Assembly: GCF_963676685.1 (NCBI RefSeq)
Contig: NC_092356.1
Span: 248,001 to 312,000, forward strand
Direction of reading: 5' to 3'
Source: Mytilus edulis
Taxonomy: Eukaryota
Length of the DNA: 64,000 nucleotides
The position numbers and the translations under genes were made by a program. This document shows, piece after piece, positions 7,761 through 47,646 of this stretch (within the stretch, counting starts at the first letter, position 1; every line of letters starts with the position of its first letter). Under the pieces are notes generated by a model, which ran no database searches, was not told the origin of the DNA, and saw only the letters and a list, made by a program, of their open reading frames with translations.

Positions 7761-8689
7761 TCTTCAGCCAAACATACGCGAATATTAATTTACATCATTG
7801 CTTTGATGGCTACTATATGTACCATCAGATGCACAATGTCATGTCGTAACTAAGGAGTACGCCGCCATCTTGACTTTCTATAAAAACTTAAATGTTCGAT
7901 AAATGCAACAGAATCTAAAATGAACTAGCACCTACCTCAAAAACTTCATTTTAATTAGATACTATCCGAATTTGAAGCGTACAAGTAACGAAATAATCTT
8001 TCGTCTGAAAGTTTTCAATCGTATGACGTCGTGTCTTGCCATGACGTACATTCGCCAAATCATTCGTGAAATTTCCCTGAATTTTATTTAAATTTTATTT
8101 TTATACATTTTCGAAGCTTTAGTGCATTTATTTTATTTCTTTTTTTGGGGTTATATATGCATTAGAATAGAAACAACTGTCATGCAATTGTTTTATAATC
8201 TCAACTTGCTGAAAATCCCAGTATCCCTGCAAGAATGTGTATCGCGCATGAATAGACTACAAAAGTAGTTTCGGAAACATGGTTTATCGAAGTGTAAACC
8301 AAGAGAAAAATTCTTCTTGACCAATCCAATTCAAGTATTTATAGATATGCAAATGATATAAGAATTATAATACCGTATTACTGCGTCAAGTGGGCACCGT
8401 GTGCTGACCATAATGTATTATCAGATTGATAATGTGTATCTATATCATATGCATTAAGGTAAATTATTTCTTTGTTGAATATAGATTATTTTTTTCTCTA
8501 ATGTGTGCTTAAAAGCAAATGTATGGTTTAACACATACTTAGCCGTACAATACAATAAAGTACCAGAACAACTTTGAAAACATACTTGCGTTCACCTGTT
8601 GGTGACCTTCTGCTGTTGGTTTTTTTTCTATGGTCGGGTTGTTGTCTCTTTGGTACATTCCCCATTTCCATTCTCAATTTTATTACGTA

Positions 8690-10800
8690 AACAACAGGGG
8701 TGCTTCATACAATGTCACGTACATTCGTAATCAACAGGAGTGCTACATACAATGACACTTACGTTTGTAATCAATAGGAGTGCTATAGACAATGTCACTT
8801 ACGTTTGTAATCAACAGGAGTGCTACAGACAATGTCTCTTACGTTCGTAATCAACAGGAGTGCTACAGACAATGTCTCTTACGTTCGTAATCAACAGGAG
8901 TGCTACAGACAGTGTCACTTACGTTCGTAATTAACAGGAGTGTTACATACAATGTCATTTGCGTTCGTAATCAACAGGATTTTTACAGATAATGTCACTT
9001 ACGTTCGTTATAACGTGGTGTGCTACATACAATGTCACTTACGTTCGTAATAACGTGGAGTGCTACATACAATGTCACTTACGTTCGTCATCAACAGGAG
9101 TGTTACAGATAATGTCACTAACGTTCGTAATCGACAGGAGTGCTACATACAATGTCACTTACATTCGTAATTAACAGGAGTGCTACAGACAACTTCACTT
9201 ACGTTCGTAATCAACAGGAGTCCTATAGACAATGTAACTTACGTTCTTAATCAACAGGAGTCCTATAGACAATGTCACTTACGTTCGTAATCAACAGTAG
9301 TACTATAGACCATGTCACTTACGTTCGTAATCAATAGGAGTGCCACGCACATTGTCTCTTACTATCCTAATCAACTGAAGTGCTTCAGAAAATGTCACTT
9401 ACGTTCGTAATCAATAGGAGTCCTATAGACAATGTAACTTACGTTCGTAATCAACAGGAGTCCTATAGACAATGTAACTTACGTTCTTAATCAACAGGAA
9501 TCCTATAGACAATGTAACTTACGTTCGTAATCAACAGGAGTCCTATAGACAATGTAACTTACGTTCTTAATCAACAGGAGTCCTATAGACAATGTCACTT
9601 ACGTTCGTAATCAACAGGAGCGTTCGTAATCAACAGGAGTCTTATAGACAATGTAACGTACGTTCGTAATCAACAGGAGTCCTATAGACAATGTCACTTA
9701 CGTTTGTAATCAACAGGAGTCCTATAGACAATGTCACTTACGTTTGCAATCAACAGGAGTCCTATAGACAATGTAACTTACGTTTGCAATCAACAGGAGT
9801 CCTATAGACAATGTCACTTACGTTCATAATCAATAGGCGTGCTATTGACAATGTCACTTACGTTCATAATCAACAGGCGTGCTACAGACTATGTCGCCAT
9901 TCATAGTGATATTGTTCTCTGACAAATAGTCCAAGAACCAGAGGTTTTCGCAGGAACAGTCCCAGCTGATGCCATACATATCTACTGAGGCAAGGCCAAA
10001 GACATTGGCAAACATGTTGTTTGGGATGGAGTGTTACAGATAATGTCACTTACGTTCGTTATAACGTGGTGTGCTACATACAATGTCACTTACGTTCGTA
10101 ATAACGTGGAGTGCTACATACCATGTCACTTACGTTCGTAATCAACAGGAGTGTTACAGATAATGTCACTAACGTTCGTAATCAACAGGAGTGCTACATA
10201 CAATGTCACTTACATTCGTAATCAACAGGAGTGCTACAGACAATTTCACTTACGTTCGTAATCAACAGGAGTCCTATAGACAATGTAACTTACGTTCTTA
10301 ATCAACAGGAGTCCTATAGACAATGTCACTTACGTTCGTAATCAACAGTAGTACTATAGACCATGTCACTTACGTTCGTAATCAATAGGAGTGCCACGCA
10401 CATTGTCTCTTACTATCCTAATCAACTGAAGTGCTTCAGAAAATGTCACTAACGTTCGTTATCAACAGGAGTCCTATAGACAATGTAACTTACGTTCGTA
10501 ATCAACAGGAGTCCTATAGACAATGTAACTTACGTTCTTAATCAACAGGAGTCCTATAGACAATGTTACTTACGTTCATAATCAACAGGAGTCTCATAGA
10601 CAATGTAACTTACGTTCGTAATCAACAGGAGTGCTATAGACAATGTCACTCACGTTTGTAATCAACAGGAGTCCTATAGACAATGTCAATTACGTTTGTA
10701 ATCAACAGGAGTCCTATAGACAATGTAACTTACGTTCGTAATCAACAGGAGTGCTATAGACAATGTCACTTACGTTCATAATCAACAGGCGTGCTACAGA
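8690..10800 (-). repeat. 40-bp minisatellite (~48 copies) in gene B intron 1; unit = last ~34 nt of exon 1 plus GTAAGT
   Basis: Unit caatgtcacttacgttcgtaatcaacaggagtgctacaga matches 10761-10800 across the exon/intron junction. Confidence 0.95.
9862..10029 (-). pseudogene. Duplicated 3' ~168 bp of gene B exon 1 embedded in the minisatellite
   Basis: Near-identical to 10774-10941 (four substitutions seen); no evident acceptor in front. Confidence 0.85.
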
Positions 10801-11650
10801 CTATGTCGCCATTCATAGTGATATTGTTCTCTGATAAATAGTCCAAGAACCAGAGGTTGTCGCAGGAACAGTCCCAGCTGATGCCATACATATCTACTGA
10901 GGCGAGGCCAAAGACATTGGCAAACATGTTGTTCGGGATGGTTGTAAATGTGTTATAGTTCAGGGAAGCATAATTTAACTTTGATAACGCATAGAACATG
11001 TCGGATGTTACTGTTGATAGGTGAGCGTTTTCAATCAGCACTCGTTCAATATTTGGCATATTAAACAATGCTCCGAACGCCAATGCACCGGACGTCAGCT
11101 CTGAGTTAATAATTGCGAACTCTCCCTTAGGATTCGGTACTGTTGTCATTCGATTTACGTTCAGGTTTTTGAAACTATCAGCCACCATATTAGAAATGGA
11201 TCCGCCTTGAATGTGGAATAGATTGACATCTCCAAAGTAAGAGAATGCTTCAACTGGAATGGATAGAATATCACAATTTAGAATTTCGACTTCTTCAACG
11301 TAACTGAAATCGGCAAACGCGTCTTTGTCCAAAATTAACTGCCCTCCGAAATAACACATGATATATAGGGCTGGCGCATAGTCTGGATCAAAAGTTGCTG
11401 TGTTAATACTACTGAATCCAGAAAATGCCGGTCCATTCGGTGCACTTGCTGAGATTTCGCCATCGACATCTTTCAGCATCAGTCTTTGCGGCTGCGCAGT
11501 TGTAAAGTCAGAAAATACAAGAGGCAAACTCCAACTTCTTGCGTTACAGGTGAATAAAATTGTCGATGCATCATATGTACAACCGGTAGGGTCCCCAGAT
11601 GCTGATGACAAAACATATATAACAAACAGAACACGAAAATGAAGACCCAT
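10774..11650 (-). CDS. LRR gene B exon 1; full CDS join 10774..11650, 7470..7535, 6658..6959 (414 aa)
   Basis: ORF 10766..11650 with signal peptide, LRRs and WDCSCDNLW; donor GAAC|GTAAGT, phase 1. Confidence 0.92.
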
Positions 11651-14882: not shown

Positions 14883-15007
14883 TGTATATAACATACTAGT
14901 AATATTTAGTTAGCTTTTAATTTACTGATAACAAAATCAATATTTATACCAATAAAACAATATTCAATGATCTTATTAAAGTATTGAATGGGTAACCTTT
15001 TAGCCAA

Positions 15008-16080
15008 GGTAGATACAAGTATCTTGTCTTAGGGAGGGATAAATCATACTTTGTAAAGAATCACTCTGATTCAAACAAAAAATTCTCTGAAACCGATATT
15101 ATCAAGATGCTTGATTTCTTGATTGACAACATATTTGTAACGTTCGGAGGACGTGTTTTTCAACAGACTGTCGGCATCCCAATGAGAACAAACTGTGCCC
15201 CTCTACTTGCCGACTTATTTCTTTATTGTTATGAGGCTGACTTCATGCAGGAACTTCTTAGGAAGAAAGATAAGAAGTTAGCAATATCCTTTAACTCTAC
15301 TTTCCGCTATATAGATGACGTTCTTTCACTAAACAATTCAACATTCGGTGACTATGTGGAACGCATCTATCCCATCGAATTGGAGATAAAGGATACTACA
15401 GATACAGTTAAGTCGGCTTCATATCTTGACTTACATCTAGAAATTGACAATGAGGGTCGGTTGAAAACAAAACTTTACGACAAAAGAGATGATTTCAGCT
15501 TTCCAATTGTGAACTTTCCATTTCTAAGTAGCAACATTCCAGCAGCACCTGCATACGGGGTATATATCTCCCAATTGATACGATATTCCCGTGCTTGCAT
15601 TTCCTATCATGATTTTCTTGATAGAGGGTTACTGCTCACAAGGAAGCTATTAAACCAAGAGTTCCAAATGGTGAAGTTGAAATCATCCCTTCGTAAATTT
15701 TACGGACGCCATCACGAGTTGGTTGACCGTTATGGAATAACCGTTTCACAAATGATATCGGATATGTTCTTTACGTCGTAACTACAATCCCCTTCCCTTT
15801 CATGAATGTGACCTACCGATTTAGACTATTTACCGGTTATGTAATCACATAAGCAACACGACGGGGCCACATGTGGAGCAGGATCTGCTTACCCTTCCGG
15901 AGCACCTGAGATCACCCCTAGTTTTTGGTGGGGTTCGTGTTGTTTATTCTTTAGTTTTCTATGTTGTGTCATGTGTACTATTGTTTTTCTGTTTGTCTTT
16001 TTCATTTTTAGCCATGGCGTTGTAAGTTTGTTTTAGATTTATGAGTTTGACTGTCCCTTTGGTATCTTTCGTCCCTCTTT
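15008..16080 (+). mobile_element. 5'-truncated Penelope-like retroelement: RT core/thumb (ORF 15107..15781) plus 3' tail
   Basis: QQTVGIPM(R)TNCAPLLADLFL, FRYIDDV, YLDL, LYDKRDDF, AYGVYISQLIRY motifs. Confidence 0.85.
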
Positions 16081-18280: not shown

Positions 18281-18380
18281 NNNNNNNNNNNNNNNNNNNN
18301 NNNNNNNNNNNNNNNNNNNNNNNNNNNNNNNNNNNNNNNNNNNNNNNNNNNNNNNNNNNNNNNNNNNNNNNNNNNNNNNN
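18281..18380. other. Assembly gap (100 N, true size unknown)
   Basis: Run of 100 n. Confidence 0.99.
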
Positions 18381-29617: not shown

Positions 29618-32600
29618 CAGTGATGTGGAAGGATTTTTTCAGTATGGGCCCTGGGCCCCCAAAAACAATATTTAATGGGCCATTTTGAGATTTAATGGGC
29701 CTTGTTGTCAAATGAATGGGCCATTGATTTATAACAACAACAAAAAACCAAAAATGTATGTTTCAGCAAAAAGGTACTAACCTTGTGATTCTAATTTGCA
29801 TTGTCTCTTTGCTTTTGTAAATTCAATGATAATTTAAGTCTTAGTTCATGCTGATATATTTATGTTTTTTGTGAAAAAGACTAAATAAAGGCAACAGTAG
29901 TATACCGCTGTTCAAAACTCATAAATCCATGGACAAATAACAAAATCGGGGTAACAAACTAAAACCGAGGGAAAAGCATTAAATATAAGAGAACAACGAC
30001 ATAACACTAAAATGTAACACACATAGACAAAATCCCACGAGAATAACAAATATAACATATATATATAACATCAAAACCAAATACATGAAATTGGATAGAC
30101 AAGTACCGTGACACGTCTTATCGCAATGTGAATTTACACTCAAAAATAAGAGAAAACAAACGACACAACGTTATAATGTAATACACACAGAAACGAACTA
30201 TAATATAATAATATATAATATATATACTAACATTGTATTTGTTCATCATATGATCATATGTCTCTTTGCTTTTGTAAATTCAATAATTTAGGTCTAGACT
30301 AACTTTTATTATTTAGAGAAGACATCATAACATGATGAAACTTAATTAAATAAACATCAATTATCAAACAATATAGTACAATACAACAATGTGCAAGTAA
30401 CAACATCATAGAAATAGTATCACAATAAAATTAAACAGATAAACACCATATCTGTATTAAATACTGGATAAAACTGAGACTAGAGCTTTCAACATTGTTT
30501 ATGTTAATAATAGCAGCCTATAATTAGCTGATCTAGACATATAAGTTTAGGTTAATTGACTAGAATATTAAGATCTTGATTTCAAGAGTCTTCTTTTTTT
30601 CTTGTGCCACCTTTCAAGTGAGGATTTAAAGTTATGGTGTGCCAAACCCTTGCCATGCATTTTTATTCTTATAAGTTTGTCACACTGTTCGTGATTGAGA
30701 CAGTTCCTTTTTGGGGTCAGTATTTGATTTTGAATAGAAAATGTCCTTTCACAGTCAGCAGTGTGTAAAGGAATAATAAGGGATATCTGTGCCAGCTTAA
30801 TGCTGTTGGGTAGATCTTCTGTGTGATGTACAGTCAGAAGTTGCCACAGATGCTTCATTCTATCTACTGGATATTTGAGTGATTTTACAATTAGCTTTGC
30901 CTCCCTCCATTCTTTCAATACAATATCTATATCAAATATGGGGGCAGAGACTTTTCCTTTATGGACCAACTAATAATAGATTATAGATGTAGTAGTTAGC
31001 AACTAGTCTCATATTAATTGTTTTCATTTGATTTGGCAATCATATAAAAAAAAACAAATGTTAAATGGTCAATGATGGCCATCATACAGAAATATTATTT
31101 GGTCAAAACAACAATTACTTTGTCAAGTACATACCTTTGCAACAGCAACATCAAGGTCTTTCTTTTGTAAGGTTAAGCATAACTTCGACACTATCGGTAG
31201 TACATCCATCAGCATATAAGTGATATATATAAAACTAGTTGTTGCCATTTTTTTTAATAAGCCATTTGCCTTTGGGTCCTTTGATGCTTGCCTTTTATGG
31301 AAGTATGAAATGAGAGCATCAAGACTACGATAAACCGCCTGCACAGCCTCAAAACAGGATAACCATCTGACAGCATGTATCTCTTTGCATTTTAATATTG
31401 GTAAATTTAGTACTGACTGTACTTCATGTAATTCACCTTCTCTTGTTGGGAAAGCTTTGAAGTAATAAAATACAGAAGTCCACCATTTCTGATAATGTTT
31501 CATTAATTGAACACCTTCTGCTGCTTGGCTTGTACAAAGGGCTAATCTATGAGCCATACAATGAATGTGTATCATATGTGGGTTTAATTCCATCAACCAC
31601 CCTTTAACACCCTTATCAGACCCTGACATTACAGTTGCTCCATCAGAGCCAAAACCTATTAGTTTGTCATTAGTAATGTTGTGTTTTGCCATTTCCTCTA
31701 TAATAACCGAGGTCAAACCTTCACCAGTTCCATCGGAGTAAGATTTATCCCGTAGGATTACAGTTTCAGGAATTGATGTTTCTGGGTCAATAATCCTTGC
31801 ATTAATGGTAATCTTTTTATTGTTAGAAGTGTCAGTGCTTTCATCTGCTAGAATGGTAACATAAGGCGATTTTGAAATTTTTTCATCAATCTCTGATTCA
31901 ATTTCCAAATCAATGGCAGCAAGGATTTCTGTAGCCGAATAATAACTTTCGTAATTAATTCTGTCATTGAATTTTAAGTTTTCAAGTTTAGTGACTCCTA
32001 CTTTTTTCAAAAAATTAATCATTGATTCATATTTATTAAGAGGCAAATCTTCTGAAGCTAACCAATAAACTGCCATCATTGCAAGAATTATGGCTTAATC
32101 CTCAGCACTGTCGAGTTTGTTACATGATTTAGTAAATTCTTGCTGATGTATTGGTGTTGATATTGCTTGTTTGTGGTCAGGTGTCTCTTGATGTCTAGAC
32201 ATAGTACTTGTTTTGAATGTTGTGCAGACTAATGCAAGGTAATTTTTCTTCCCAGCCTTTTGACAAGATTTGCAATACATTTTCGTGCCATCATACAAAA
32301 GCCAGGGCCATAACTTTTCCCAAACAGGGTGATATTTGCGGGAATCTTTATTTACAGCAGTAGTACTAGTACCTTCACCGGGATCGTCGTGTTTGTTGTC
32401 ATGTTCAACTTCATTTGGGTCTTCGTCGACCGCCATACTTTCCTCAGTAATGTCCGTATCTGTGTTGGGCGTTTGAGACAACTCCTCTGCATTTTCTGAA
32501 TTATTGTTTTTATCCCGACCAACAAAAGAAAGTAATGTTTTTTGTCCAGGCAAAACAACAATTCGCTGTTTCTTTGGAGGCATGTTTACAAATTTTAAAA

Positions 32601-33084
32601 ATAAACCAAAGACCAAAAAGTTGACAAGGACAGTTAAGCGCCTTTTTATAGAGACAATTTCGATATTTTAATAAAAAGCCCCCGGGTCAATTGAAATTAT
32701 AGGGAGTTTGATTTAAATTTTTTAATTTGTAAAAATTTCTACTCTTTACAAGCCAACTTTTACAGATTTAAAGTTGTTTGCTTTGAAATATTTAAAATAT
32801 TCTTGATTATGTTTTATTTTGTAAATCAGATATACCACATGTTGTTATCGTGGACATAAATCAAAACGCCCGAGACGACTCGAAAATGTTATGGTGCTCC
32901 TATCTTTGGAGCAAAACACAACACCGTTTTGGACACAAATCATGGCGACACGAAACTTTCAAACACAATCGGAAATTCAACTTGCGATGTCTAAACGAAG
33001 CAAAAATATTGTGCGCCACTCCGGCGCTGGCATACGTGACTCTATGCGCAATGGGCGCATGGCGCTCGACTTTCCCGATCACTG
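29618..33084 (-). mobile_element. hAT-superfamily DNA transposon, ~3.47 kb
   Basis: Imperfect TIRs CAGTGATGTGGAAGG / CAGTGATCGGGAAAG; ttaatg on both flanks; internal transposase. Confidence 0.85.
30568..32616 (-). pseudogene. Defective ZNF862-like hAT transposase
   Basis: TTF-type Zn finger (WPWL..MYCKSC..H..H), LADESTD, GFGSDGA, HCMAHRLAL, VRWLS, and dimerisation motif PLHTADCERTFS; in-frame TAA at 32095 between two same-frame ORFs. Confidence 0.88.
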
Positions 33085-34554: not shown

Positions 34555-35198
34555 CCTGTAATTCAGTGGTTGTTGTTTGTTTATCATCATGTGTTACATA
34601 TTTGTTTTTCGTTCATTTTTTTTTACATTAATAAGGCCGTTAGTTTTCTCGTTTAAATTGTTTTACATTGTCTTATCGGGGCCTTTTATAGCTGACTATG
34701 CGGTATGGGCTTTGCGATGACCTATAAATGTTAATTTCTGTGTCATTTTGGTCTTTTGTGGATAGTTGTCTCATTGGCAATCATACCACATCTTCTTTTT
34801 TATATTTGATTGGTAAGTGTGTGGCTGATACTATGACATTAACAAATTTAGATGAAACACGAGGTTCAGTAATTCAATGGTTGTTACGTTCTGTAACATT
34901 TATTCTTATTTTGATTTAGTGTTCGTTTGTTTTAAAACTGTCTAGAATATAGAATTATATTGAGAAATGAAATGTGACATTGAAATGCATCGTGGTTGCT
35001 TTCATGCAATCAAAAGTACGTATTGTTATAAACTAGACTTCTAAATCATGATAAAACATTTAAAATTTCACCTTTTAATAATCAATGGAAAAAAATCATA
35101 AGTTACCAATTTTATAATAAAAGAAATAAAGTTTTCGCCAATGGATAATCTGAAACGTCTGTATCTTTTACAGGTATCATTGGATTAAAATTTGATAT

Positions 35199-35419
35199 CT
35201 AAGTCCATGCATTTGAATCTCTTTTCTCCCTTCTTCCTCCTTTTCTCTTCTCTTTCCTCTGGTTTCCGTTTCTGCCATTGTCTTGCTTCGCTCTCAGTGT
35301 GCTGCGACGTAGATATATTACCAGTATAAGAGCAACGATACCAAATATCAGACACACAAATGTCACACAGTAACAGATCAACTGGAATAAACCAATACAA
35401 GAGCCGCCGACTACTATTC
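35199..35419 (-). CDS. LRR gene E exon 3: transmembrane helix and highly basic tail (alternative acceptor at 35475)
   Basis: ttttatAG|GA; GIVVGGSCIGLFQLICYCVTFVCLIFGIVALILVIYLRR; TAG at 35199. Confidence 0.85.
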
Positions 35420-35493
35420 CTATAAAATATAAATCAACTGGAATAAACCAATACAAGAGCCGCCGACTACTATTCCTATAAAATATAAATCAA
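35377..35493 (-). repeat. 56-bp direct duplication covering the exon 3 acceptor of gene E
   Basis: atcaactggaataaaccaatacaagagccgccgactactattcctataaaatataa occurs twice, offset 56. Confidence 0.93.
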
Positions 35494-35700
35494 TAATACA
35501 CATGTTAAGTCAAGTTCATTGGTGGACGTCATGACAACGAAAGCGGTTTATTACACCACGTGAATAAATTCCTATAGAACACAGACAAAATAGTTCTAAT
35601 ATAATTATAATATATGTTTAATCAAATATGTTTTAGAACATAATTTTACTGCAACTAATTGTATTCAGTCTCCAAATCGTTCCTGCAAATGTTCAATTTG

Positions 35701-36303
35701 TATGGCGCGGAATCAGGGTCAAAAATACTTATTTACGTATAAACATAATTATTTCTGTATATACGGAATTCGATTTATGTATATACGTAAATCGAATTCC
35801 GTATATACGTTAATCGAATTCTGTATATACAGAAATAATTACGTATATACGTAAATTGAATTCTGTATATACATAAATCGAATTCCGTATATACAGAAAT
35901 AATTATGTATATACGTAAATATACAGAAATAATTATGTATATACGAAATTCGATTTACGTATATACGAAATTCAATTAACGTATATACAGAACTCGATTT
36001 ACGTATATACGTAAATCGAATTCCGTATATACAGAAATACTATCTTTCTGTCTTTACATAAATATTTCTGTATATACGGAATTATTTCTGTATATACGTA
36101 ATTCGATTTCTGTATATACGTTATTCGATTTCTGTGTATACGGAATTAATTTTGTATATACGTAATTCTATTTCTGTGTATACGGAATTATTTCTGTATA
36201 TACATAATTGGATTAACGTATATACGTAATTAGTTTTGTATATACGTAAATCGAATTATGTATATACACAAAGAAGTATTTTTGACCCTGATTCCGCGCC
36301 ATA
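35701..36303. mobile_element. Foldback/MITE in gene E intron 2
   Basis: Perfect 30-bp inverted ends tatggcgcggaatcagggtcaaaaatactt; interior of ~21-bp subrepeats in both orientations. Confidence 0.88.
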
Positions 36304-36747: not shown

Positions 36748-36813
36748 CCATTTCTCCATTGCATGCATCAGTTGAGGTTGCAAACGCCTGTGCCCAAACT
36801 GCTAAACTTTTAT
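36748..36813 (-). CDS. LRR gene E exon 2 (66 bp; YKSLAVWAQAFATSTDACNGEMG)
   Basis: cttccAG acceptor, TGG|GTAAGA donor; same length and phase as paralogous exons. Confidence 0.82.
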
Positions 36814-37219: not shown

Positions 37220-37952
37220 ACTTGATTACTTACACCTAGGCTAGAAATGACAGCTGTTTCATCAAAAGTGATGTTATTTGTAACAGTGTAATTATAATAC
37301 AGAGTGATAACTTACATTGGTCAGCAGCCGGAGTGAAACAAACAGCTGCTCTATCAAAATGATGCTATTGGCTACAGTATAATCATAATATTCAGTGATA
37401 TATATAACTTACTTGTTCAGTAGCCGGAATGCAACACACAGCTGCTCCATCAAAAGTGATGTTACTGCTACAGTGTAATCATAATACAAAGTGATAACTT
37501 GCATTGTTGAGCAGCTGAAATGGAACAGACAGCTGCTCTGTCAAAAGTGATGTTATTGGCTACAGTATAATCATAATACCAAGTAATAACTTACATTGTT
37601 CAGCAGCTAGAGTGGAACAGACAGCTGCTCTGTCAAAAGTGATGTTATTGGCTACAGTATAATCATAATACCAAGTGATAACTTGCATTGTTCAGCAGCT
37701 GGAGTGGAACAGACAGCTGCTCTGTCAAAAGTGATGTTATTGGCTACAGTATAATCATAATACCAAGTGATAACTTACTTGTTCAGCAGCCGGAGAGGAA
37801 CACACAGCTGCTCTGTCAAAAGTGATGTTATTGGCTACAATATAATCATAATACCAAGTGATAACTTACATTGTTCAGCAGCTGGAGTTGAACAAACAGC
37901 TGCTCCGTCAAAAGTGATGTTATTGGCTACAGTGTAATCATAATACCAAGTG
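37220..37952 (-). repeat. ~92-bp tandem repeat (7 intronic copies plus the real junction) in gene E intron 1; unit = exon 1 end plus donor
   Basis: acttac/acttgc recurs at 37228, 37310, 37407, 37497, 37589, 37681, 37773, 37864. Confidence 0.93.
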
Positions 37953-38725
37953 GTACTGGTATCTGTACAGTCCAAAGGAGCACCGTGTAAATTGATGTAC
38001 AGTAACGCCAATGTTGTATCAAATATAGTACTCGGGAGTGTTGTGATCTGATTGTTAGCCAAAGACAGATACACGAGGGCTGTGTTACTGCTAAACCACG
38101 CTGCATCAACAGATGTCAAGCCTAGATTCTCCAAGTAAATGAATTTAATATTCGTTAGTGGATCAAAGAATGTCGAGGGAAATGTTCCTGGTGTTAGTAC
38201 TACGTTCTTAATGCTCAATTCTCCTCTTGGACTTGCTGTTGTTGATATTGGTGTGATGTCCAGGCTTGTGAAGGTGCCAGCATCAATGGTTGATAGTGTT
38301 CCGCCACTGATCGATACCTTGTTTGCCGTTCCCAGACTATTAAACATACTGGCAATCAAAGAAGTAGTACAATCTTTGATAAAAACCTCCTCAAAATACC
38401 CGAGATCACCGAACGTCCCTGTAGAAAACGTAAGTGATCCTGTACATAGGAACTGAAGAGTTGCCGGGTAATCAGAGTTAACACCACTAAATGCGCTGAA
38501 ACCGCTAAATGTTCCCGCGGAAACTGTACCACTGGCGCTGTAGATGGTTAGCCTCTGTGGCTCAGAATCCGTGAATCCAGCGAAACTGATAGATCCACCG
38601 ATACTTGTCATGTCGCACGTGTAATGAATGATAGAGCTATCAGAACTATCCCCTGTACATCCGGTAGGTGTTGCTGCATCACCATTGTAGATACAAAACA
38701 TCAGAATGGTTAAAAAAAGTGCCAT
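37870..38725 (-). CDS. LRR gene E exon 1; full CDS join 37870..38725, 36748..36813, 35199..35419 (380 aa)
   Basis: ORF 37835..38725; LRR LVYLSLANNQITTLPSTIF; donor CAAT|GTAAGT, phase 1. Confidence 0.92.
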
Positions 38726-42489: not shown

Positions 42490-43266
42490 CTTCCTAAGTT
42501 TTGCCCTTCGTATTACTATGATCGGGGATTATAATATATTGACCTCTGCCGTTCTAGAGCAGTGGCTCGAAGTTTATCTTTTCGCCTTCTGTAATTCTAA
42601 GATCGGGGATTTTAAGAGTTTACTTACCTTAAGTTTGCTCCCCGAATATGATGCACAGGGGTTCAACGTTTTAACAATGCCCTACGTGTTCAAAGATTCG
42701 GGGATTTCAACTTTCACTTGTGTCCTCTGTGGAGCAAAGATAGGGGTTCAAACTTTTACGTGATACAAGAGTCGGTAATTTTGATGTTTACTTTTGCCCT
42801 CCGTGATACAAGTGCCAAAAAATGTATATGGGATTTAAATCTTTACATTTTCCTGCCCTCTGTGATACAGGGATCAGGGATGAGGACTTTTACCTTTGCC
42901 CTCCGTAATGAGGGATCAGGGAATAAGACTTTTACCTTTGCCCTCTGTGATAAGGGATCAGGGATTAAGACTTTTACATTTGCCCTCGGTGATAAGGGAT
43001 CAGAGATAAAGAAGTCTACCTTTGCCCACCGTGGAAAGGGATCAGGGATTAAGACTTTTACCTTTGCCCTCTGTGATACAGGGATTAGGACTTTTATCTT
43101 TGCCCTCCGTGATACAGGGGTTATGGATCAGGGATTAAGACTTTTACCTTTGCCCTCCGTGATACAGGGATCAGGGATTAAGATTTTTACCTATGCACTC
43201 CGTTATATAGGGATAAGGGATTAAGATTTTTACCTTTGCCCTCTGTGATACAAGGATCAGGGATTT
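42490..43266 (-). repeat. 42-43-bp tandem repeat in gene F intron 2; unit = exon 2 end plus donor, decaying leftwards
   Basis: tacctttgccctc(c/t)gtgata..ggatcagggattaagacttt repeated; matches 43224-43266. Confidence 0.9.
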
Positions 43267-45211: not shown

Positions 45212-47646
45212 TTTAAATTGTTGTGATATCGTTACGGAATAATTTTACATTCGCACCTTCATTTTCTAAAATAGGCTGATATCGGATCTATACTGTAAAT
45301 ATTGAACAACTTCTATTAAAACATGTTAATCCTTTATTATCGCCTTAATCCTTTAATCCATAAGTGTAAGTTAGTTTTTCAATTATGGAAACAAGTAATT
45401 TAAGTCTAATATTTATTATGTTTGGGACATTATATTAATGAAGATTACCTGACATTTTATAGAGATGTGTGCATCAAGCCTCCGGGTTGCACATCATTCT
45501 TCGATATTTTTCCCGTAAAAATCCATAAATATGAATCATGATAATCAGTTTTTCCGAGAACACAGTTATCAGCCTGTAATGATTGGTACAAATGTATATA
45601 GTTCCTTAAATGGAGGCAATTGGCACAATGGTAGTATTCAAATGAAGATGTGCTTCAGACTATCGTTTTAAAAAATGAAATGTTTAGATTTAGTTAGGCA
45701 ACATTGAATCAATGATGGTCATTGACTTTGAAAAGTTATCGGAAATAATTATACCTGTGTTCTGTTTGATGATTACACAGCTTGGAGCTTTGTGAAGAGT
45801 ATAATATACACACATATGGAACATCAGAGTTTTTTGAAGGTTTATAGACGGGGGACGAAAGGTGACGAGGTTAGCTAACTTGACGCTTCGTGTCAGACCA
45901 GCTAAAATTTCACCATGAACATTGAATTTAATGAAACTAATATATATAACATTTCACTGATAAATAATTCAGACGATTCTCCTTGCTCGTATTAGTATGT
46001 AACCACTCACCCCATTTAGTTGTTCATGGGTCTACTAGTGACTACGCTTTGCGTTCCAAAATAGTTTTTTTTGTGATATCACCTCTTTCGTTTAAGAAAT
46101 TCATCAAGACAAATTTAACAACTGCTTTTAGAACATGGAAGTATTTCGTTACCACAAATTACTTATAACCTTTAATAGATTTTTTCATAGAAAAACATTG
46201 GGGTTTGAAAGTTTTCATTACTATAAGAAATCGTTTCGCAATATAAATGTGTAAAGTGATGTTGTTTATAAAGTCAGTAAATTTAGACTACGATCAGTGT
46301 AAACTTGTCAACCCTTTAAATAAGCTTATTTTAATACATTATCCCTTAACTACTGTGATCAGATCGTTAGATATTGTGTCTATTGGTAAACATATTGATT
46401 TCGTAATAAATAAATTAAAACAGTCATGATTACTAAATAGCATTGCTTTACAGTTATTACCATTAATTACACGTATCGCTACTTATATCTTGCCATCGCA
46501 CAAAATCATGTTTTCTCTGACTGTTTATGACTTTTTTTCACTAAGTTCATTGAATGTATTCAAATTGATATTTTAGTCTTGGATACATATAAAAAAGAAG
46601 ATGTGGTATGATTCCCAATGAGACAACTGTCCACAAGAGACCAAAATGACAAATACATAAACAACTATAGGTCACCATACAGCCTTCAACAATGAGCAAA
46701 GCTCATACCGCATATTCAGCTATAAAAAGCCCCGATATGACAATGTAAAACAATTCAAACGAGAAAACTAACGGCCTTATTTATATAAAAAAAAATGAAC
46801 GAAAAAAAAAATATGTAACACATAAACAAACGACAAACACTGAATTACATGTATTTTTTAGTTGTAATTTGCGTTGAAGATGTAACTGTGAGATTTCTCA
46901 AATCGGTAATTTGTGTTTAAATATTTTTGTGAGAGATGCTTTTTTTTTGTGTTCTGTGTAAAACTGATGAGTGAAACTTTTGTCAACTGATTTTTAAATG
47001 GGTGTCAAAAGAAAACACAATTGATTCCAATGAGAAAGCCGATTTTTTGTTGAAAAGTTAACTGTTTAATGAACATACCACTACATCATGTTAAAACATA
47101 ATTCTGTATCTGTTATTATAATTCTGAATGAAACTTTCAAAATCCGGGTTTGGTTAACAGAACAGAGAATAATGGGCTCCAAAATTTGTTGATGTCCCCC
47201 CACCCCCCTCCCCCGCTGTCATTACCCTGTTTATACTTGTTTTTATTGCTTGAGAAACTCGGGAGTAACCGGTGAAAACCACCGACCTACGACAGGAAAA
47301 ATGTCAATCCTAGTCTATACGGAATAATGTGTAAAAAAAAAAAAAACGAGTAGAGAGAAAAAGGGAGCTAGAATACTACAGCATCGAGACACTCAACGGT
47401 TACAATTGACTGCTAGTACTGTATAAAATGCGTTTCTCGTTTATTTTATTTTCAATATAAATAAGAAGATGTGGTATTTATGCCTATGAGACAACTCTCT
47501 GTCCAAATCACATTGTATAAAAATCAAGCTATAAATGGCGGTTTGCTTTATTTTTCGTGGTCTCTTTAAATCTTGTGATTTTATCTATCGTTTCACTCGA
47601 TACGTTAATGTCTCCACTTGAAATATATCCGTGTACATGTGCATAA

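Follow-up and report, generated by a model that had tools for sequence, protein, structure and literature searches.

In primate CEACAMs, a stop codon within a CEACAM1-type transmembrane (TM) exon can create a GPI signal, as outlined in PMC5856374, and splicing of the 3′ end of NRXN3 at splice site 5 yields either a TM or a tail-less surface protein by way of an in-frame stop, in the outline given in PMC6429815. Splice sites can also be multiplied by tandem repeats: the VNTR in intron 7 of F7 repeats the donor, and only the first donor is reported as used in the summary of PMC1557585. Choice between neighboring acceptors has been treated with a scanning model that favors the first AG downstream of the branch point (in the main statement of PMC1431707), and a human reporter library, as summarized in 10.1101/392605, found order to be decisive for identical donors and not for identical acceptors. 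Here we describe gene E of Mytilus edulis, where the acceptor of a TM exon has been duplicated in tandem. The gene lies on the minus strand of a 64,000-nucleotide stretch of the genome (the window; NC_092356.1, positions 248,001 to 312,000), and positions below are those of the window unless another reference is given. Its parts are as follows.

37870..38725, minus strand: coding part of exon 1, with putative signal peptide and LRR ectodomain, ending in phase 1 (translation; Pfam LRR_8, E 8.9e-08; structure model)
37262..37952, minus strand: 92-bp tandem array of 7.5 copies in which the 3′ end of exon 1 recurs together with its donor; the first copy holds the native one (TRF)
36748..36813, minus strand: exon 2, 66 nt, encoding the end of the LRRCT cap and Cys303 (translation, family alignment)
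35701..36303, no strand assigned: MITE-like insertion within intron 2, bounded by terminal inverted repeats and flanked by a target-site duplication of 6 bp (sequence, and empty site in DNA runs)
35502..35514, minus strand: two A residues, −35 and −30 relative to acceptor 1, as candidates for the native branch point, outside the duplicate (consensus match only)
35433..35493, minus strand: upstream copy of the 56-bp unit, with acceptor 1 (exon start 35475), leading to the predicted 325-aa tail-less form (repeat and translation)
35437..35439, minus strand: third AG (exon start 35437), in the TM frame, which would yield 386 aa (frame check, matrix)
35377..35432, minus strand: downstream copy of the 56-bp unit, with acceptor 2 (exon start 35419); the TAG at 35420-35422 is the stop of the short form (repeat and translation)
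35199..35419, minus strand: coding part of exon 3 in the 380-aa form, with juxtamembrane Cys315, a TM helix at about 321-344, a basic tail, a Trp-containing terminal motif and the stop
34899..34904, minus strand: nearest AATAAA poly(A)-signal candidate past the stop (motif only)

The earlier note on this DNA, made from its letters alone, had reported a perfect 56-bp duplication that provides two identical acceptors, and alignment of the copies together with TRF bore this out. Two 56-nt copies, 100% identical, lie in tandem at 35377-35432 and 35433-35488 (span 35377-35488) across the TM-exon acceptor, in a region that is a single-copy locus in its own genome. TRF extends the array to 35377-35493 (2.1 copies, i.e. 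5 nt of microhomology), and this 5-nt extension of the match to 35493 reads TTGAT on the gene strand, with one occurrence in the intron and one in the exon. From the presence of TTGAT at both ends, the usual signature of slippage between short repeats, we infer how the duplicate probably formed. Joining exon 1 (38725-37870) and exon 2 (36813-36748) on the minus strand to the acceptor at 35475 gives a protein of 325 aa that ends GIVVGGSCIGLFQLIYIL, its stop being the TAG of the second acceptor, and joining the same two exons to the acceptor at 35419 gives the 380-aa TM protein. Both products had been predicted in the earlier note, and each equals a database model letter for letter. Two points had been overlooked by its author. 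The third AG, with exon start 35437, also restores the TM frame. Further, the identity between the acceptors at 35475 and 35419 is limited to 18 intron and 43 exon bases, and since the 43 exon bases after each acceptor are the same, shorter overhangs map to either site: 35475 and 35419 can be told apart only by reads that cover 44 or more bases of exon 3. Several other routes through the region were discarded. The remaining AGs near exon 3, at 35571 and 35381, give frameshifted products; NAGNAG-like sites at 35469, 35466, 35413 and 35410 reach acceptor matrix scores of just −6.2 to 0.9; and all later donors of the 92-bp array run into a stop after 296 codons. A micro-intron within the duplicate was set aside on inspection of the sequence, as the GTs 5 and 8 nt past acceptor 1 break the frame and the GT at 21 nt leaves 35 nt.

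Gene E belongs to a cluster of ten same-strand, tandem, three-exon LRR-TM paralogues (G000:C13, approximately 195000-299000), the nine others being 33-40% identical to it. Exon 3 with its TM segment is identifiable in 9/10 cluster genes, and a full TM helix with tail is present in 22 of 39 relatives, which were hand-picked as short family-like matches (38 from among the 150 matches listed, plus P0005). The other 17 stop at the boundary of exon 1 or exon 2 or shortly past it and resemble unspliced read-through; a few of these have hydrophobic ends. Judged by these counts in cluster and relatives, the TM form is the ancestral or usual state of a bivalve-wide type I LRR family. Its named relatives come from scallops, oyster and clam (modelled in Pecten, Ylistrum, Mizuhopecten, Ostrea and Mya) under inconsistent database names, and the LRR-TM family of the cluster appears to be uncharacterised. 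The 380-aa form has the layout of an extracellular LRR type I membrane protein, with a capped LRR ectodomain, one TM helix and a cytoplasmic tail; Pfam gave no match to a TIR domain and the tail has 36 residues, which sets it apart from Toll-like receptors. A Trp lies within the last four residues of the tail in 12 of the 22 full-length relatives, and this tail is missing from the short form. In the AlphaFold model (mean pLDDT 84.1), a hydrophobic helix at residues 2-11, in the putative signal peptide, is followed by a beta-rich solenoid; residues 289-297 form a helix and 308-317 a hairpin, and a long helix begins at 318. Foldseek matched it to generic extracellular LRRs (Slitrk2, Toll, Slit2, Nogo receptor), with a best E of 1.3e-06, TM-scores by query of at most 0.50 and 12-22% identity among the matches listed, and ESM Atlas returned generic LRR clusters only. 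One LRRCT cysteine pair (380-aa residues 255 and approximately 298) that most relatives retain is absent from gene E and its orthologues, and Cys303 and Cys315 are both retained in 17/22 full-length relatives. Elsewhere in the cluster, the paralogue at 21656-20254 has exons 1 and 2 and no TM exon 3 was found for it, which may sit in the N run at 18281-18380 or be lost; the paralogue at 11659-10769 has the 3′ part of its exon 1 repeated at 10030-9857, within its donor array. Two frames between paralogues, 30571-32667 on the minus strand (split by a stop) and 14996-15778 on the plus strand, resemble what we take to be a hAT-type transposase and a reverse-transcriptase fragment, respectively.

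The earlier note had named raw reads and other individuals as places to look for the duplication, and we found it in four public DNA runs, out of 24 runs listed, from four studies with the organism labels A, A, B and C (three labels). A contig of 55 nt running from copy to copy (the junction, 35408-35462) and a 61-nt contig of the collapsed repeat were each present in 4/4 runs. Relative to flanking sequence, depth across the four runs was 0.83-1.26 for the junction contig and 1.66-2.52 for the repeat contig, where 1 and 2 are expected of a two-copy homozygote and 0.5 and 1.5 of a heterozygote; every run looks homozygous by this rough measure, which uses contig depth only and in which samples may be pools. 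One run, X1, shows no differences from the window in long pieces and is possibly the source of the window; setting X1 aside, the duplication is present in 3/3 runs from three studies. Unrelated contigs of X1 and X4 contain a 33-nt match (3 differences), which we took as chance. An assembly artefact or a private allele, as the 100% identity of the copies could hint, is almost certainly the wrong account of the duplication: the junction contig occurs at approximately single-copy depth in 4/4 runs from four studies, and the gene model of a second species, described below, requires the duplicate. The MITE-like insertion, 226 nt upstream of acceptor 1, is polymorphic, with an empty site in X4 and both states in X1, so the duplication is found on haplotypes with and without it. 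Together with X4 substitutions 45 and 62 bases away from the duplication, this means that the duplication is not brand new. Metagenome contigs were searched for outgroup or mussel DNA that could show the unduplicated ancestral state; neither a protein profile nor a 20-nt pattern recovered any locus (0 each). That all samples carry the duplication is compatible with drift in an ancestor that tolerated the leak, and equally with selection.

The same runs bear on whether the TM exon is still in service. Across the four runs no variants fall in 35199-35493, and the adjoining 299 bases (34900-35198) hold 9 substitution and 4 indel sites; the intron has 4 substitutions. For the 221 bases that would be UTR if the gene made the short form only, the invariance has p = 0.036, 0.007 or 0.0008 for 6 substitutions, 9 events or 13 events, the conservative count of 6 omitting 3 substitutions from a contig of doubtful origin; the test could weaken if the flanking variants predate the duplication or recombined onto it. 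The suggestion that the duplication might simply be a loss-of-function allele is weakened by this lack of variants in the TM exon past the short stop, as well as by the homozygous-like depth across three labels.

Both isoforms of M. edulis are already modelled in RefSeq, and the short one in a second species as well. The 380-aa protein is identical to XP_071146770.1 (M. edulis, isoform X1), and the 325-aa protein is identical to XP_071146771.1 (M. edulis) and to XP_076086773.1 (M. galloprovincialis, LOC143057355). The last three residues of the M. galloprovincialis 325-aa model need the duplicate copy; the M. edulis models may derive from the same assembly as the window. Models of the TM form exist for M. 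trossulus (two loci), M. californianus, M. coruscus and M. galloprovincialis (VDI39018.1), and at the M. galloprovincialis RefSeq locus the short model is the only one listed. Among 4 candidates, none was a short transcript-derived fragment of the C-terminus. No paper naming any of six accessions or locus ids was found in the literature, though supplementary tables of mussel transcriptome papers could list the isoforms, and searches of titles and the starts of abstracts with combined terms returned nothing on gene E or its family. The duplication is real and common to the mussel samples, and the isoforms it separates are present in databases and were not found in print by our literature search.

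Because 43 exon bases are identical after both acceptors, the RefSeq models are not proof of acceptor use, and the short model could be an artefact of read mapping. Aligners tend to prefer the shorter intron. This leads to a reading in which splicing goes to acceptor 2 alone, leaving the first copy as inert intron, and in which ambiguous mapping produced the 325-aa model. The invariant TM exon is what that reading would predict, and the duplicate holds what a working site would need, a branch-point-like TTGAT, a tract and an AG. We nonetheless think it improbable, as acceptor 1 is the stronger by context and as the 380-aa model to be expected at the M. galloprovincialis RefSeq locus is absent among 8 cluster members.

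The context of the two sites differs in the way the earlier note had described, with the native upstream intron retained by the first acceptor. Three branch-point-like motifs (−35, −30 and −15) precede acceptor 1, which also has an AG-free zone of 94 nt; of these motifs acceptor 2 keeps just the one at −15, and its AG-free zone measures 16 nt. On an acceptor matrix trained on 15 other acceptors of the cluster, which range from 1.4 to 11.8, acceptor 1 scores 8.1, acceptor 2 scores 7.3 and the AG with exon start 35437 scores 7.8. At the level of sequence, then, the exon has two acceptors (8.1 and 7.3), one of which reaches a stop before the TM helix is complete. Under the scanning model acceptor 1 would be favored. 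A branch point within the first copy would lead instead to 35437 or 35419, restoring the TM frame in either case. Since acceptor 1 has the better branch-point context, yet the TM exon is without variants, both forms are likely made.

An extreme version of this preference would have acceptor 1 used almost exclusively; the duplication would then be close to a null allele, carried to high frequency by drift in a cluster of ten redundant genes. It is acceptor 1 alone that has the native branch-point candidates and the 94-nt AG-free zone, the scanning model (as stated in outline in PMC1431707) points the same way, nine paralogues lie alongside, and the M. galloprovincialis RefSeq locus is listed with a 325-aa model only. 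We consider this doubtful nevertheless. The TM exon past the stop is invariant between variable flanks, a 380-aa isoform is modelled in M. edulis, and two downstream AGs each restore the TM frame. Redundancy is itself questionable, because the paralogues are just 33-40% identical and the orthologue has been kept at 64-76% identity in relatives.

The reading we prefer, in which we place about as much confidence as doubt, is that both forms are made and that the 325-aa form is what a copying slip left behind as a tolerated by-product, not a regulated isoform. The 56-bp duplication would have arisen by microhomology-mediated slippage between the 5-base repeats. Acceptor 1 would be the favored site, as sole holder of the −30 and −35 branch-point candidates and of the 94-nt AG-free zone, and splicing would go often enough to acceptor 2, which has a branch-point candidate of its own at −15, or to the AG at 35437, which is in frame, for the TM form to stay constrained. 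The short mRNA would be spared decay, its stop being in the last coding exon, and the short protein, with a whole ectodomain but without a full TM helix or cytoplasmic tail, would meet one of three fates, namely release, degradation in the ER or perhaps attachment by a GPI anchor, none of which shows a sign of having been selected. The idea that the duplication builds in a regulated switch found no support. Tandem arrays cover 12,877 of the 107,000 cluster bases (12%) and overlap 4/33 mapped splice sites (P = 0.57); as this overlap is at chance level, the acceptor duplication appears as one accident among several of its kind, and none of our observations calls for design or regulation. Several points speak against our preferred reading. 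The lone short model at the M. galloprovincialis RefSeq locus is what almost exclusive splicing to acceptor 1 would give, the 16-nt AG-free zone and close branch-point candidate of acceptor 2 leave it the poorer site under scanning, and the apparent fixation across three labels, like the passing of a GPI rule by the short tail described below, is in keeping with selection.

We next consider what the short protein may become. The 325-aa form has the full ectodomain and ends 18 residues into exon 3, ahead of the strongly hydrophobic part (19-residue hydropathy of 1.99 at the short-form end versus 3.03). Its stop lies in the last coding exon, approximately 518 bases before the nearest AATAAA. An mRNA whose stop is in the last exon generally escapes decay, and the short mRNA is likely to do so if there is no intron in the UTR. 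The earlier note had seen in the tail a resemblance to a GPI-anchor signal, and this stood in part. The tail combines Ala297-Thr-Ser, a 7-residue polar spacer and an uncharged 19-residue end with a mean hydropathy of 1.99, for a pro-peptide of 28 aa, and so passes a rule that we made ourselves after the sequence was known. Under the same rule 1/22 relatives cut at the same column pass and 21/22 fail, these controls being without the three read-through residues. The approach to the omega site does not fit such a signal: residue 297 ends a predicted helix (289-297), the 11 preceding residues have a mean hydropathy of 0.53, and no flexible polar linker is found there. By our own rule, a GPI signal in the short tail is plausible.

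If such a signal works, the short form could have a function of its own, as a GPI-anchored isoform or a secreted decoy, and the second mode of attachment could be the reason why the duplication spread, as with primate CEACAMs. We regard this as unlikely. Its attractions are the Ala297-Thr-Ser site, polar spacer and uncharged tail that 21/22 relatives cannot match under the rule, the homozygous-like depth of the duplication in all runs, and the precedent of primate CEACAMs, where a TM-exon stop creates the GPI signal (as outlined in PMC5856374). Moreover, the second LRRCT cysteine pair is missing from gene E, so that a cut at 297 would take away Cys303 and Cys315, which presumably pair, at once and leave an even number of mature cysteines. 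Set against these are the post hoc nature of the rule and the position of residue 297 at the end of predicted helix 289-297 rather than in a flexible linker. The omega site and the cysteine loss are also present in the TM-only models of M. californianus and M. coruscus, and would thus predate any short form. Hydrophobic ends are readily produced by AT-rich read-through (P0008, P0005), and horse CEACAMs with a TM-exon stop showed no GPI signal in the account of PMC5856374. The boldest version, a young dual-anchor gene in which one slip supplied its own stop and exposed an omega site that was already there, giving a signalling TM form and a GPI-anchored or shed decoy that selection fixed across the species complex, seems to us improbable.

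What the locus offers depends on which of these readings applies. If both forms are made, it is a natural experiment on the choice between acceptors whose cores, of 18 intron and 43 exon bases, do not differ, and a view of the first origin of a tail-less receptor isoform, with the TM-only models of related mussels for comparison. If the short form is GPI-anchored, gene E would be an invertebrate parallel of the primate CEACAM switch with the TM form still present, and if the dual-anchor reading is true, it would record how a TM-to-GPI isoform pair is born, at a stage that can be dated. If it is just a leak or a loss, it is an ordinary case of the tandem-duplication load of mussels, and the 325-aa RefSeq model may be a mapping artefact.

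By analogy with described systems, gene E may be a further case of the TM/tail-less splice pairs exemplified by NRXN3, with an unusually clear origin. As at splice site 5 of NRXN3, splicing at the 3′ end would lead to a TM or a tail-less surface protein through an in-frame stop; NRXN3, as presented in PMC6429815, has a dedicated stop-bearing exon and measured isoform ratios, whereas gene E would draw the choice from a young tandem duplicate and is not known to be regulated. As in the primate CEACAMs of PMC5856374, in outline, the early TM-exon stop leaves a hydrophobic stub without a charged cytoplasmic border. Unlike them, gene E takes its stop from a duplicated acceptor and keeps an intact TM exon available in the same gene; its protein is an LRR rather than an Ig protein, and GPI addition is here a prediction only. 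The ectodomain resembles those of Slitrk, SALM, NgR and Toll/TLR proteins in its LRR solenoid and LRRCT-like cap, and the relatives of gene E share a single TM helix and short tail; unlike those proteins, gene E has no TIR or Ig domain, and its structural matches are generic. Intron gain by segmental duplication, as sketched in PMC3265369, differs in that gene E cannot form an intron, there being no suitable donor within the 56 nt. The F7 case, to the extent summarized in PMC1557585, is similar in that a tandem repeat copies a splice site, and differs in that gene E duplicates an acceptor, of which the first copy is the truncating one. The 92-bp donor array of gene E (37262-37952, 7.5 copies) is the closer counterpart, and tandem arrays that likewise begin at a donor, with the native donor first, are present in the paralogue at 11659-10769 (8686-10807, 40 bp x 53) and at exon 2 of the paralogue at 45244 (42854-43265, 42 bp x 9.7). 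In all three donor arrays of the cluster the native site comes first, the same harmless layout as that outlined for F7 in PMC1557585.
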